From IMG/VR virus record IMGVR_UViG_3300033149_004284, positions 1 through 64,000 of that record: 64,000 nt of DNA; one strand, given 5' to 3'. Numbering within the stretch: position 1 is the first letter of the stretch; the number at the start of each line of letters is the position of its first letter. This document shows positions 32,434 through 63,592 of this stretch, piece after piece. Under the pieces are notes generated by a model. The model saw only the letters and a list, made by a program, of their open reading frames with translations. It did not search any database and was not told the origin of the DNA. Both the position numbers and the translations under genes were made by a program. Source of the DNA: a virus.

Positions 32434-33944
32434 TCACTTAGCATTGGGACCTCCTTCGCATAACATATTCAGCATCGGGCAATCATCTATCACCCGCTTT
32501 CTTGCCATCTTGCAATACTCCTCTGACAAGTCTATCCCAATCGCCCTCCTTCCTAGCCGCAGGGCCACCATGACGCTTGTCCCACTCCCAACAAAGGGGT
32601 CAAGAACTATGCAAGGAACTGGGTTATGCCCACATGAACACCCAGGCCGCCATTTGTCCGTTGCGCGACTGGTGAGAGCCCATCCCGTGCTATCAGTTTT
32701 CGTGGGTGCGTTGTTAGGTACGTGCGCTGGCTCTCGCTTGTTAATGTGGCCTGTCCGTTCGATGATTCTGTTCCATCCCTTCCCGCACTCCGGGCAGCAT
32801 CCGCGCTCGGAAGTTCCGAGGTGAATGCACCTCTCAGGAAGCACAGTGGGAAATACGGCGAAGTGCAGCCCTGGAAATCCGCTTGTGGGGAATCTCCAAA
32901 CGTCTCTCAGGTTGGCTCCTCGCCTATCAGGCTCCCATCTCTTACCACTGTAGGTCGGATTCCCGTAGCCAGCTGCCTTCTCACCACCGAACTTGATATT
33001 CAATCGCGGTCTGTCCATTGAGTGTACTGTCTGCCCAGGGACGCCGCGTGAGCGCTTATGGCTGTCGCTCACCCCGCGTTTGTACCTTGCTACTGAGGCT
33101 TCTTTCAAAGGCGTCCTTACAGCGTAGTTGTCATAGTAGTATCGGGCGCTTTTCGTAAGTAGCAGAATATGCTCGTAGCTGGATGTGCATCTGTCAGTGA
33201 CACTTTCCGGCATCGGGTTCGGTTTGGCCCAGACTATTGACGACCTCAGCCACCATCCGTCTCTTTGCAGAGCCATGCCCAGCATCCAGGGGATAGGAAC
33301 CCATTGTTTATCCTGGAATGAACCGGCTATGTTCAGCCACAGCGTGCCGTCATCCCTGAGCACCCTTTTCACTTCTCTGAATATCCCAACCAGATGGCAA
33401 ATGTAGCAAGCTCCGCAAAGGCGCGGCCTGAAATACTTGGCTAGATGAGCAGGCACAGCGTATCTCGGTAGAGTTATCTCGGTTTGCATCCTAGCCCTTT
33501 CGAGTTCTGACATGACATAGGCACGCTCTTTATCAGTCAGGTCTGGCCGCAATTCCTGGAATGGCCGCCCACAGTCTGGCGTTGGCTCCAGGCCCAGCGA
33601 CCCGCGCCAGCAGCCACAGAGACGACAGAAGGCATGATTGTGCGGTTTATGTCGGCTTCCTGCATTACTATCCTGTTTTGCTGATGGCCCACCTGACATT
33701 CCTGGTCGTATCTGCTCGTCCCACTCATGCTTGCACTCATCCGAGCCGCCCCAGAGTAAGGGCGGCAAATTGTAGTCTCTTAATCCCCATGGAATCACCA
33801 GTAGGGTGGCGAGGTACAAACCGTCTGGACGCAAGCATCTGGCATAGTACGCAAGACATCCCTAACATCGCCCTGCACAACAGCCCACTGCCGGCTTCCA
33901 GCCAATACCTCACTCAACCCTACTGGTTGTCTCTCTCCCTTCAT
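32434..33944 (-). CDS. N4-C/N6-A DNA methyltransferase (beta class), interrupted by 11 nt directly after SPPYW
   Basis: 33944-33795 encodes ..QGDVRDVL..VCTSPPYW*; a second frame from 33789 continues WGLRDY..EVKRVLRDDG..WAKPNPMPES..HFAVFP..VLDPFVGSGT..IGIDL. Confidence 0.85.
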
Positions 33945-33959
33945 CTGATAAATTGCCTT

Positions 33960-34117
33960 TCATATTAGCCATGCTATGAACCCAGTGGTGACACTTACGC
34001 AAAGCAAAGTTAGATTGCCAAGGTCACAACGCAGCCATCTATCCTCGCCAAGACCTCCCTACAATCCCCCTGCACGATGGCCCACTTGCGCTGGCCTGAT
34101 AATACTTCATCTATCAT
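33960..34117 (-). pseudogene. Deleted methyltransferase N-terminus joined to a frameshifted HNH C-terminus
   Basis: 34117-34010 MIDEVLSGQRKWAIVQGDCREVL..*; overlapping frames give LRCDLGNLTLLC / RKCHHWVHS. Confidence 0.6.
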
Positions 34118-34448: not shown

Positions 34449-35390
34449 CTAACCTAGTATTCTCTCAAGATGGTTGCCAAAATTGCTATGCCCTGCCCTC
34501 TTGAGATACTGTAAGCCGAGAACAGTCAGCTTGCGTCCCCGCCCTGTAATCTCAATAAGAGCCTTTCGCAGCAACAAGGGCTCATAGATCTCCTTGATAG
34601 TTCTCGCGTTCTCGGCTAAGGCTCCTGCTAAGGTCGATGCGCCTGCTGGCCCTCCCCCAAACATTATACCAAGAACCATCAGGTACTTTCTCTCCTCAGG
34701 CCTAATTCCCAAGAAGTCTATCCCCAAACTAGACAGGATTTCGCCGATGTCAGAAGCCGATGCCTGGTTAGTCACGTCCCTGACACGTCTCAGCAGATGG
34801 TTCGCGATCCTCGGCGTGCCCCTGGCCCTTTCTGCCAAAGCCTCACTAGCACCTGGCTCCAGCGTCACGCCCAGTGCTGCTGCTGAGTTCTCGACAATCT
34901 CGGCTAAGTCCTCAGTCGGATAGAAGTCCAGTCTCAGTCTCAGAGGAAACCTGGTTCTGAGGGGGGCTGTTACCTCCGCAGGCCGCGTTGTGGCTGCTAT
35001 GATAGTCCCTCGAGCGCTTCGATCCATTAGGTTTGCCAAACGCTCCTGGCTATCTATGTCCAGAGCATGAACCTCGTCTATGAAGATGAACTGAACGGAT
35101 TCAGGTTCCCTGCTTCCTAGTTCTCTAGTTAGGCCTGCTTCCAAGTCATCATAGTCTTGGCCTGTAACTCTGACAAGGTCCTGGCCTCCTACCAGCCTAG
35201 CCAGCGTCGTCTTGCCGAGCCCTGGTGGTCCAGTCAAGAGAAGGTGATCAAGAGGTTCTGACCTTCCCTCGGCTGCCCCCAGGGCCCTTCGCAAGACATC
35301 TTTGATTTGTTGCTGGCCAATAAAGTCCTGCCAGGCTTGGGGGCGGAGTTTACTATCGAGCATTGCTATTGACAATAGAGTGCAAGCCAT
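34449..35390 (-). CDS. ruvB: Holliday junction branch-migration ATPase RuvB homolog
   Basis: LRPQ...DFIGQ, DHLLLTGPPGLGKTTLA, FIDEVH, AATTR, PLRTRF, RGTPRIANHLLRRVRD, YEP.L..TGRGR. Confidence 0.9.
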   Translation of the reverse strand: MACTLLSIAMLDSKLRPQAWQDFIGQQQIKDVLRRALGAAEGRSEPLDHLLLTGPPGLGKTTLARLVGGQDLVRVTGQDYDDLEAGLTRELGSREPESVQFIFIDEVHALDIDSQERLANLMDRSARGTIIAATTRPAEVTAPLRTRFPLRLRLDFYPTEDLAEIVENSAAALGVTLEPGASEALAERARGTPRIANHLLRRVRDVTNQASASDIGEILSSLGIDFLGIRPEERKYLMVLGIMFGGGPAGASTLAGALAENARTIKEIYEPLLLRKALIEITGRGRKLTVLGLQYLKRAGHSNFGNHLERILG

Positions 35391-35608
35391 CCACGTTTCC
35401 TCTACCTCCGAAAGTACGGGTTGACTAGCAGAGCCACTACAACCAAGAGCCAGCCCAGAACAAAGAAGACAACAAAGACACCAACCGCGACATCCAAGAG
35501 ATTTCTCTTCATCACACCAACGCCTGGTTTGACCAACTGCCAGAACTTGGTCCACGTCATCATGGCCTTTTCCTCCTTCCTAGAATTACCTCTCATTGTC
35601 GCCTCCGT

Positions 35609-61268: not shown

Positions 61269-62147
61269 TTGAGGATATTTGTTCTTCCTGTGTCGTCTCA
61301 GTTTCAACCTCCTCCCATGAAGATTCTCTATCCTCCTCACAACAAGCGAGACTACGGCATTGAGCAAGACTTCGCTCAGCATCTCACAGAGCCTTCTAGT
61401 GACTGGACGATCGCAGAGTCTTCTGACGTTGCTGATTGGCATTACCTTCCTATCTACTGGACACGTTACCATGTGACACATAACTATGCCAAGACTGGCC
61501 TAGAAGCACTTCAGCGTGAAGTTGCCCGAAGAATCATTGACGACAAAAGGACCTTTACAATTTGCCAGTATGATGATGGGCCTTTGGTAGACCTTGGTAG
61601 AACTGTGCAGTTTCTAGGGTCTCGCAAAGGGGAAGAAGGCATCGACGTCCCTCTTCTTTCCTATCCTCATAAGCTCCCTGCAGTTGATCCCCCTAAACAG
61701 TGGTTAGCGTCTTTTGCAGGGAGACTCCGAACGCACGAGGTTCGCGCAGACATGCAGCGTGTTCTGGGGCCTCGCCAGGACATTGACATTCAGGACACAC
61801 GCAAAACCAGTAGATTCTTTGTAGACTTGATCCTTCGGTCGTATGTTTCCCTCTGTCCCAGGGGATGGGGTGGCTCGTCTTTTAGGTTTTATGAATCTAT
61901 GCAACTGGGAGTAGTGCCCCTTCTCATTGGCAGCATAGACACCCGCCCCTTCAAACGTTTCCTGAACTGGAGTATAATGAGTCTCTATGCTCGCACGGCC
62001 GAGGAAGCAAATGTGTCCCTCGACTCCCACACTCTGACAGAATTGCTAGAGATGGGGCGATGTGCCAAGAAAGCCTGGCATCAAGATCTATCGTTTGGGC
62101 ACTGGCACAAGTATGTGTTTCAGGAATTGGAGGCTCTATGGCATTAA
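61269..62147 (+). CDS. Exostosin-like (GT47) glycosyltransferase
   Basis: ASFAG..THEVR, SLCPRGWG.SSFRFYESMQLG.VP. Confidence 0.8.
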   Translation: MRIFVLPVSSQFQPPPMKILYPPHNKRDYGIEQDFAQHLTEPSSDWTIAESSDVADWHYLPIYWTRYHVTHNYAKTGLEALQREVARRIIDDKRTFTICQYDDGPLVDLGRTVQFLGSRKGEEGIDVPLLSYPHKLPAVDPPKQWLASFAGRLRTHEVRADMQRVLGPRQDIDIQDTRKTSRFFVDLILRSYVSLCPRGWGGSSFRFYESMQLGVVPLLIGSIDTRPFKRFLNWSIMSLYARTAEEANVSLDSHTLTELLEMGRCAKKAWHQDLSFGHWHKYVFQELEALWH

Positions 62148-63592
62148 AGCACCATCAGCACTCTCTACAGGCCGAGGCGGTATGGGGGAAAGCCTACGGC
62201 GTGTTTGATCGAATTGTTCAGTTGAGAGGTTTCAGGACTGGCGTCGAGGTTGGCGTTGCTTTTGGAGGGCACATAGAAGCACTTCTCAACATCCCCACTA
62301 TTGAGAAGGTCTATGGAGTTGATCCCTATCAGCAAACAGGAACTAGCAGCTCCTTGGGCCTCTCGCAGTCTGAGATGGATACCCTCTATCTCTTCGTTCT
62401 GAACAGACTTGCCCCGTTTGGCGATCGTTACCAGCCTGTACGAAAAAGCTCGGTAGAGGCATCGTCTATCATCCCGCAGGAGATTGATTTCGTCTACATA
62501 GACGCTGACCATTCCTACCAGGAAGTTATGGCGGATCTCTGTGCTTGGTTTCCCAAAGTACGCGAAGGCGGGATAATTGGCGGCCATGACTATTCTCATC
62601 CTGACTTGCCAGGAGTTAAGAAAGCCGTGGATAGATTCTTCAGTCGGTTTGCTCAGCGCGTTCACTCACTAGGCGAATATGTCTGGTGGATAGAGAAGAA
62701 GATGCCCAGCATCAGCTTCGTATTGCCTGCATACAACTGCGCTGAGTTCGTCGAGGAGTCTGTGAAGTCTATTCAGAAGGGGAACTTTGAAGATGGCGAC
62801 GAGCTCATCATTGTTGACGATGGCTCATCTGACAATACCCTGATGATTTTGCAGAGACTGGCCGCGTACTATCCCTCAATAAGGCTTCTCAAACACGACA
62901 GTAATAGGGGCGCATCAGCAGCCAGGAATACAGCGATAGCCAGTGCCAAGAACTCCCTACTCTTCAACCTAGACTCAGATAATATCCTAGTGCCAGGCAG
63001 CATCCCCAAACTCAAAACATATTTGATTAGCTCCAATGCTGATATAGCAGTGTTCGAGGAGACGCGTTTCTTTAGAAACGGAACTGGCCAGATAACACAC
63101 AGCTGGAAGTATGGCCCAGGTCTGTTGACTCTATCCGACTGCTTGGCTGGCCAAATAACTCCTGGGGCTAGTGGGAACTATATGTTCACTAAGGAGTCCT
63201 GGGCCAAAGCTGAAGGTTACCCTGAGTTCGCAAAGACCTATGAAACCTGGGGATTCGCCTTCAGGCAGCTAGCCACAGGCTCCAAAATGATGGCAATGCC
63301 CGACTCTTTCTATCTCCATAGGTATGGCCATTCGTCACTCTGGGTGCGAGAAGGAGGAAATCGGAACGCTTCTCGGAAAACTCTAAAGATGATTCTGCCC
63401 TTTCTTGGCCTGCTTGACTACAAGGACGTTGAATACATAATGAGCCACAAGGAGACCTGGCTTACTAACTTATCTCAGCACCCAATACGAGTCAAGGGGA
63501 GCGCTCCTGGGAATTCGGGCAGCATCAAACTCCAGAGCCCTCCACTTGACTATATGGAGCTTTTGTGTCAGAATATAGACGAGGAGACATAA
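62138..63592 (+). CDS. Methyltransferase (type 24)-GT2 fusion
   Basis: VEVGV..G, DFVYIDADHSY, GGHDY; then SFVLPAYN, VDDGSSD, ARN, LDSD. Confidence 0.9.
   Translation: MALKHHQHSLQAEAVWGKAYGVFDRIVQLRGFRTGVEVGVAFGGHIEALLNIPTIEKVYGVDPYQQTGTSSSLGLSQSEMDTLYLFVLNRLAPFGDRYQPVRKSSVEASSIIPQEIDFVYIDADHSYQEVMADLCAWFPKVREGGIIGGHDYSHPDLPGVKKAVDRFFSRFAQRVHSLGEYVWWIEKKMPSISFVLPAYNCAEFVEESVKSIQKGNFEDGDELIIVDDGSSDNTLMILQRLAAYYPSIRLLKHDSNRGASAARNTAIASAKNSLLFNLDSDNILVPGSIPKLKTYLISSNADIAVFEETRFFRNGTGQITHSWKYGPGLLTLSDCLAGQITPGASGNYMFTKESWAKAEGYPEFAKTYETWGFAFRQLATGSKMMAMPDSFYLHRYGHSSLWVREGGNRNASRKTLKMILPFLGLLDYKDVEYIMSHKETWLTNLSQHPIRVKGSAPGNSGSIKLQSPPLDYMELLCQNIDEET

Follow-up and report, generated by a model that had tools for sequence, protein, structure and literature searches.

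A stop-first insert at the catalytic motif of a phage DNA methyltransferase gene, its association with a decayed homing-endonuclease cassette, and a possible ribosome hop across it

The window analysed here is a 64,000-nucleotide stretch of IMG/VR virus record IMGVR_UViG_3300033149_004284 (positions 1 to 64,000). Its contig is that of a phage, encoding a portal, a helicase, a RecT-like protein and a peptidase/endolysin. On the minus strand, a DNA methyltransferase gene is interrupted at its catalytic motif, where the sequence runs ACC TCG CCA CCC TAC TGG TGA TTCCA TGG GGA TTA AGA GAC TAC. The features of the locus, in the direction of transcription, are listed below.

34040..34117, minus strand: copy 1, putatively what is left of the resident methylase's N-terminus (MIDEVLSGQRKWAIVQGDCREVLAR...), with 16/23 identity to that of the closest intact homologue, P0002
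33940..34034, minus strand: HNH gene relic, corresponding to the 3′ end and spread over two frames, LRCDLGNLTLLC and then RKCHHWVHSMANMKGNLSDE, colinear with the HNH proteins of loci L022, L011 and L369
33795..33944, minus strand: upstream mini-ORF (copy 2), 49 aa with its own ATG, ending in TSPPYW and TGA
33798..33800, minus strand: candidate take-off codon TGG (Trp of SPPYW), read from the sequence
33796..33798, minus strand: GTG in the resume frame, overlapping the stop as GTGA, a possible restart codon read from the sequence
33787..33797, minus strand: 11-nt insert TGATTCCATGG, comprising the stop TGA (33797-33795), the spacer TTCCA (33794-33790) and the candidate landing codon TGG (33789-33787)
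32434..33786, minus strand: methylase body of 450 codons, starting at GGA (Gly of GLRDY), ending with the stop at 32436-32434 and carrying a C-terminal DPFVGSGTS AdoMet motif

An earlier note on this DNA had described a TGG-TGA-TTCCA-TGG break preceded by a 49-codon ORF (33944-33795) ending TSPPYW*, and we confirmed both the coordinates and the frames. It had also placed about 450 codons in another frame; we counted 450 from GGA, and the body matched Pfam N6_N4_Mtase (PF01555) at 3e-36. The frame of the second TGG is open to 32434 (451 codons including that TGG) and lies at −1/+2 relative to the upstream frame. The profile match, the SPPYW of the mini-ORF and the DPFVGSGTS near the C-terminus identify the gene as a beta-class N4/N6 DNA methyltransferase. 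Deletion of exactly the 11 nt at 33797-33787 yields TSPPYWGLRDY, as the note had proposed, and this uninterrupted motif is present in 104 of the 120 best homologues. Frame 0 after the TGA contains four sense codons followed by TAA, and read-through therefore cannot rescue the window gene, in line with the same note. We also rejected TGA as a sense codon, since this would not restore the frame in the window gene. Neither the window nor eight loci carrying in-frame stops contained any tRNA detected by ARAGORN, and hence any suppressor.

The window gene is on record solely as a 359-aa fragment (P0001). A blastn search of the locus against phage records returned no match, and the locus DNA matched none of 40 related genomes except the window's own. 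Just upstream of the methylase locus, at 34449-35555 (minus strand), lies a phage RuvB-like AAA+ ATPase gene, whose product matched RuvB_N, AAA_lid_4 and RuvB_C above threshold and carries a Cys-rich hydrophobic N-terminal extension of about 65 aa. Elsewhere, a 510-aa ORF at 62060-63592 (plus strand) combines a DNA-methyltransferase PHROG (residues 54-213) with GtrB-like glycosyltransferase PHROGs (residues 216-396) and may be a fused DNA-modification enzyme. Within the methylase body, GLEPTPD and YICHLV are separated by a module of about 55 aa (CGRPFQELRPDLTDKERAYVMSELERARMQTEITLPRYAVPAHLAKYFRPRLCGAC; 33573-33406, minus strand) that is absent from many homologues. The equivalent module of L007 and L031/L258 harbours an HNH gene, which divides the body into two ORFs and leaves the second with an ATG of its own; the window module may be a fused 'hit-and-run' scar of such an HNH insertion. 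In P0002 and P0009, the closest intact homologues, ...LLWGG is followed by about 280 aa of low-complexity sequence inserted in frame, which the window lacks. This insert looks as though foreign DNA were being translated, and a gene in another frame or on the opposite strand might be concealed there, as in ShiLan, an element considered below.

The N-termini of four homologues (P0005, P0024, P0097 and P0105) proved to be out-of-frame readings of TSPPYW-stop, and we therefore scanned public DNA for gapped junctions. Scanning for TSPPYW codons followed by TGA gave 14 viral loci, nine of them methylases in which GLRDY resumed 6-10 nt later in some frame, and the same scan with TAA or TAG gave 15 further loci. 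Three scans left the insert free of any stop requirement. TACTGG + N{1,14} + GLRDY codons retrieved 21 methylase loci: four had one extra Gly codon, and all 17 inserts of 6-10 nt started with TGA, TAA or TAG. Inserts of 7 nt (NNNN + TGN) were stop-first in 7/7 cases, and SPPY + NNNN + WGLRDY returned TGAC, TGAT or TAAC in 6/6. Inserts from scans without a stop requirement were thus stop-first in 24/24 cases. The sole stop-free in-frame insert was a single Gly codon; all in-frame inserts of 6 or 9 nt began with a stop, and no in-frame sense insert of two or three codons was seen in the free-insert scans. A search for Phe-type take-off (SPPYF + TRA) produced 52 matches, none of them methylases, and a scan of GTDB genomes contained at least two real gapped cases among the 119 matches listed. 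Altogether, the phage, metagenome and genome DNA scans yielded 39 unique gapped junctions, namely the window and 38 independent others, in distant methylases and at the same junction. Several inserts were recovered identically from different samples. The split at SPPYW, for which the earlier note had suggested seeking homologs, is thus not private to the window genome, and its recurrence goes far beyond what chance would give. Gapped genes make up about 1-5% of the methylase family, with one found in an unbiased sample of 78 members. We found no description of stop-containing inserts in methylase genes in the literature searched.

The 39 inserts follow a common grammar. They are 4-11 nt long, the window's 11 nt being the longest, and the first codon is a stop in every one (TGA in 23, TAA in 12, TAG in 4). 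Their lengths modulo 3 are 1, 0 and 2 in 19, 12 and 8 cases, such that all three frames are represented. Where the take-off codon is TGG, the last insert codon is TGG (13), TGA (9), TGC (6), AGG (3), TGT (1) or AGT (1); where it is TAY, the last codon is GAY or AAC in 6/6. The last insert codon matches the take-off codon at two or three positions in 32/33 Trp-type and 6/6 Tyr-type junctions. In the window, the take-off TGG (33800-33798) and landing TGG (33789-33787) match exactly, and TGA (33797-33795) directly follows the former. Each of the 39 mini-ORFs has a start codon; 38 span 26-74 codons, and L025 has only 10. The body ORFs are at least 240 aa in 29 genes, run off the contig end in five and are shorter in five. 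A stop in the resume frame lies within the insert in 16/39, often as its last codon, and an ATG, GTG or TTG in the resume frame occurs within 30 nt in only 4/39. CCA was marginally enriched as the second Pro codon (p 0.056).

Nearly all of the 4-nt inserts are exact tandem duplications of AYTG (TAC|TGAC|TGG being ACTG twice), a duplication that creates TGA automatically, and the L037 insert TAGTGG is a duplicated TACTGG with one change. The 4-nt duplications look like the fill-in of a staggered cut, and because these inserts are duplications, the matched codons may partly be a by-product of DNA repair or junction duplication. Such duplication does not account for the stop-first rule in inserts of 5 to 11 nt. 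The inserts of L016 and L312 (TAAGG) and of L025 (TAACTAAGG) end in AGG and, read as UAAGG(AG/GG), resemble a Shine-Dalgarno sequence; by analogy with the mini-SD of gene 60, these ends could aid landing. RNA structure showed no general excess in gapped over intact genes (z −0.29 against −0.20, p 0.76). Small hairpins are possible in the window, for example a 6-bp UCGCCA/UGGUGA pairing, and have no covariation support.

A partial second methylase N-terminus lay just upstream in 9/25 gapped loci compared with 3/77 intact loci (Fisher p 1e-4), and two of those three intact loci were full tandem paralogues. In about one third of the gapped loci, including the window, a truncated copy of the N-terminus upstream was accompanied by an HNH or LAGLIDADG gene or relic. 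The endonuclease gene lies between the two N-terminus copies, with Pfam assigning HNH in L022 and L011 and LAGLIDADG in L037; L018 and L019 have a LAGLIDADG motif in this position, and L029/L040, L014 and the window have only a short spacer. The metagenome scan also provided an intact cassette of the window's own lineage, L369. It opens with a truncated resident N-terminus, which is followed by an HNH gene of 203 aa (L369:1329-1937; Pfam 8e-12). A mini-ORF of 48 aa begins 1 nt past the stop of that gene, and a 9-nt insert (TGATCGTGA) separates it from a body of 646 aa. Directly upstream of this cassette, L369:121-1170 is a complete DPPY-type methylase gene. In L014, 52 nt resembling 'copy 1' (L014:7637-7690) are 98% identical to the start of that neighbouring DPPY-type gene, so that L014 has lost the body of this neighbour, along with the true copy 1 and the HNH gene, through a single deletion (end ...RELRGD*).

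Two pieces of the window, 34034-33999 (LRCDLGNLTLLC) and, after a frameshift, 33999-33940 (RKCHHWVHSMANMKGNLSDE), align colinearly with HNH residues 155-203. These pieces matched the HNH proteins of L022, L011 and L369 with E values of 0.005-0.02 each in an 800-nt search space; Pfam gave no match for so short a piece. The relic (about 95 nt) ends at the start of the mini-ORF, the position at which the HNH gene ends in L369, and the listed ORF 34117-34010 continues from copy 1 into relic sequence before stopping. A scan with HNH protein alignments returned only the two query loci, and Rfam, applied to eight gapped loci, found no group I or II intron and one tRNA far from the gene. Compared with the N-terminus of P0002, copy 1 is 16/23 identical, about the level of the body (73%), and copy 2 only 20/36, which fits a resident origin for copy 1 and an imported one for copy 2. 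The window mini-ORF is homologous to those of L014 and L369 (57% aa). Both the left breakpoints of copy 1 and the drop in identity fall at the SPPYW junction. We conclude that the window very probably contains a decayed homing-endonuclease cassette and, at the catalytic motif of a phage methylase that is otherwise intact, an 11-nt insert beginning with a stop. The methylase/HNH relic that the earlier note had raised as a caveat is real and belongs to the same cassette.

We then compared cassettes and bodies. L014 (identical to L372) and L369 share 90% DNA identity in the mini-ORF and 55% in the body, with identity dropping at the insert; since they share the mini-ORF and not the body, the cassette moved between different methylase genes. 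Both loci are gapped, by 10 and 9 nt respectively, with TGA first and last in each, so that the frame changed and the end codons were kept. Over the 48 codons of the mini-ORF, 13 changes are synonymous and one is non-synonymous (pS 0.39, pN 0.009, binomial p 7e-8). This ratio indicates that the peptide ending in SPPYW-stop was translated and constrained while the gene was gapped, and it appears to be the strongest single argument against a dead gapped gene, from the one close cassette pair in the selection test. Elsewhere among the gapped genes, dN/dS was uninformative: the sequences either had saturated dS at 45-62% identity or were the same copy recovered from more than one sample.

In the family tree, the gapped genes were unclustered, with 11 changes for 11 gapped rows. 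The window body is sister to the intact P0002 (73% identity, branches of 0.24 vs 0.27). An old gap shared by the window and L014 was considered and rejected once more homologues had been added, which placed the window beside P0002. The inserts track cassette lineages rather than gene lineages, and each insertion may be recent, a pattern also seen with the MobA element. The scatter of gapped genes, the intactness of P0002 and the possible youth of each insert weaken the argument from intact ORFs. The window showed neither additional lesions nor relaxed constraint of the kind expected of a pseudogene, both ORFs being open and the branch equal to that of P0002, a weak test should the insert be of recent origin. 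The window, L014 and L029 have lost the endonuclease but retain an intact mini-ORF and body.

The best reading of these data, which we hold to be somewhat more probable than its negation, is that a homing cassette supplied a replacement gene start together with an immunity insert, and that ribosomes hop over the insert from UGG across UGA to UGG. A homing-endonuclease cassette would have invaded the beta-class N4/N6 methyltransferase gene of the window phage. Its endonuclease would cut naive alleles, in which the SPPYW|GLRDY-coding DNA is uninterrupted, and carriers of the short insert would be immune because it destroys their cut site. The insert is presumably untranslated, as additional amino acids in the catalytic loop would abolish enzyme activity. 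The peptidyl-tRNA-Trp would detach when UGG occupies the P site and UGA the A site, slide 11 nt and re-pair with the second UGG. Decoding would restart at GGA, giving a normal TSPPYWGLRDY enzyme with the junction peptide TMPDACVQTVCTSPPYWGLR, probably at reduced yield. In synthetic E. coli constructs, the efficiency of short stop-hops is low, in the region of one percent. Across the set, a shared one-base frameshift, read-through and restart are excluded by the three frames, the resume-frame stops in 16/39 and the restart codons in only 4/39. If the gapped genes are expressed as whole enzymes, decoding would therefore have to resume exactly at the codon past the insert, as a P-site tRNA hop does. 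Hopping between Trp codons, which the earlier note had put forward, thus remains a prediction from sequence, now the best fit to the comparative data on stop-first inserts, near-cognate end codons, three frames and intact ORFs. The note's further idea that hopping throttles methyltransferase output found no support, and the evidence points instead to an immunity mark of a homing cassette. More broadly, we consider it an evenly balanced proposition that phage DNA methyltransferases host a widespread natural family of 4-11-nt stop-hops. Cassettes of at least two nuclease families would add a replacement start and an untranslatable, stop-first self-immunity insert, over which peptidyl-tRNA-Trp (or -Tyr) would slide to a cognate or near-cognate codon to yield wild-type enzyme.

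The main rival is that the gene is dead: the insert would be a scar of endonuclease immunity or cut repair that inactivated the methylase, with the open frames still undecayed. We regard this version of the inactivating insertion already considered plausible in the earlier note as rather unlikely, though it stands ahead of the other rivals, and we favour it less than the hop. Gapped genes occur singly, scattered among intact relatives; among the 4-nt inserts, exact tandem duplications predominate, which is what the fill-in of a staggered cut would produce; and five of the 34 complete gapped genes have short bodies. Phage methylases are, moreover, often dispensable. A scar, however, offers no reason for a universal leading stop, found in three frames and about 20 different sequences, or for a Trp-like end codon, and it leaves the lack of in-frame sense inserts of two or three codons unaccounted for. 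The 13 synonymous changes against one non-synonymous in the L014/L369 mini-ORF accumulated while the genes were gapped, and the cassette comes with an entire substitute N-terminus and its start codon, something that a purely selfish insertion could do without. In the window itself, the nuclease has decayed while both methylase ORFs remain open, and the rate is not accelerated relative to P0002.

Selection on the mini-ORF would also be explained by a split enzyme, in which the 49-aa peptide and the body are made separately and assemble non-covalently, the window body restarting at GTG 33798-33796 with a predicted N-terminus of MIPWGLR. The window does have the GTGA overlap, so that a restart may occur in this one gene; HNH genes split the L007 and L031 bodies of the same family into parts of which the second has its own ATG, and the T4 topoisomerase functions as split subunits (bioRxiv 10.1101/2022.08.31.505936). 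We nevertheless find a split enzyme unlikely, as a resume-frame start codon within 30 nt is confined to four of the 39 genes, restart cannot translate GLRDY in the 16 whose insert contains a resume-frame stop, and the break falls inside the catalytic loop. Conventional recoding, by a −1/+2 frameshift before the stop or by read-through, would produce SPPYW-VIPW-GLRDY or similar (peptide SPPYWVIPWGLR), and the downstream frame is indeed −1 relative to the upstream one. It seems very improbable given that the window has no slippery heptamer, read-through reaches TAA five codons past the TGA, the relatives use all three frames (some with resume-frame stops), and extra loop residues are unseen in natural homologues except for one Gly. 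Least probable of all, to the point of being hardly credible, is an assembly or sequencing artefact. The source is a metagenome-assembled genome fragmented into 411 contigs, and the earlier note had thought an assembly error plausible; yet the 11-nt insert adjoins cassette relics and obeys the family-wide grammar of a leading stop and a Trp-like last codon, and the same kind of insert is present in 38 other independent contigs, several of them identical across samples.

If the hop reading is correct, these methylases would constitute the first natural stop-hop family and a second, independent case in which translational bypassing is tied to homing-endonuclease immunity. Selfish nucleases would then have repeatedly recruited ribosome hopping to reconcile self-immunity with host-gene function. 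The dozens of minimal hop sites, with their varied gaps, stops and landing codons, would amount to a set of natural mutants from which the rules of take-off and landing could be read. Gene calling and annotation would also have to change, so that such methylases are no longer entered as pseudogenes or as proteins truncated at the N-terminus; the homologues P0005, P0024, P0097 and P0105 are currently read in the wrong frame.

Known natural cases of translational bypassing are, to our knowledge, very few: T4 gene 60 with its relatives, the yeast mitochondrial byps, and a candidate in phage phiHau3. In the Streptomyces phage phiHau3, 10-nt disruptive UUA inserts in the terminase gene led to a proposal, partly tested, of bypass at a slow A-site codon (PMC10732093). 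The methylases resemble phiHau3 in having a short disruptive insert in a phage gene for which bypass is proposed; they differ in that the phiHau3 trigger is the rare sense codon UUA, tied to host physiology, rather than a stop, and in that phiHau3 involves no homing cassette. ShiLan, a hidden homing HNH element at conserved sites of actinophage DNA methylase genes (PMC11855218, PMC9957025), likewise shows an HNH homing element targeting phage DNA methylase genes. Unlike the inserts described here, ShiLan is a long, in-frame, translated insertion, without a stop, a duplicated N-terminus or a bypass proposal. As summarised in a 2016 recoding review, synthetic E. coli stop-hops (Weiss et al. 1987) use matched codons flanking a stop, with the peptidyl-tRNA re-pairing a few nucleotides downstream in any frame, and no natural in-frame stop-hop was known (PMC5009743). 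L371 (TGG TGA TGG) and L037 (TGG TAG TGG) have exactly that form; the window, in contrast to those engineered constructs, is natural, and its hop would span 11 nt with a 5-nt spacer.

The closest parallel is T4 mobA/gene 60, as presented in a preprint (bioRxiv 10.1101/2022.08.31.505936). There, an HNH homing endonuclease travels with a replacement segment of the target gene and an untranslated insert at or near its own target, and so it appears here: a homing-endonuclease gene lies beside the insert (a relic in the window, intact genes in relatives), the locus carries its own copy of the target segment (window copies 1 and 2), and cassette and body have different histories (L014/L369). Both systems also share matched take-off and landing codons with a stop after take-off, the hop in the methylases being predicted from sequence. 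The same preprint, citing Bonocora et al. 2011, describes the T4 cases as recent insertions of an old element in which the nuclease was lost while the bypass was kept; in the methylases, too, the nuclease is often decayed or lost while the insert stays, and other nuclease families can substitute. Set against gene 60 as described there, a topoisomerase gene with a 50-nt gap, the present gene encodes a PF01555 DNA methyltransferase with inserts of 4-11 nt (11 nt in the window), and we detected no conserved take-off stem-loop or dedicated nascent-peptide signal in the methylase set. Whereas mobA/gene 60 yields two subunits, the methylase is restarted by a duplicated N-terminus. By this analogy, the window would work like gene 60 while lying outside the gene 60 element family.
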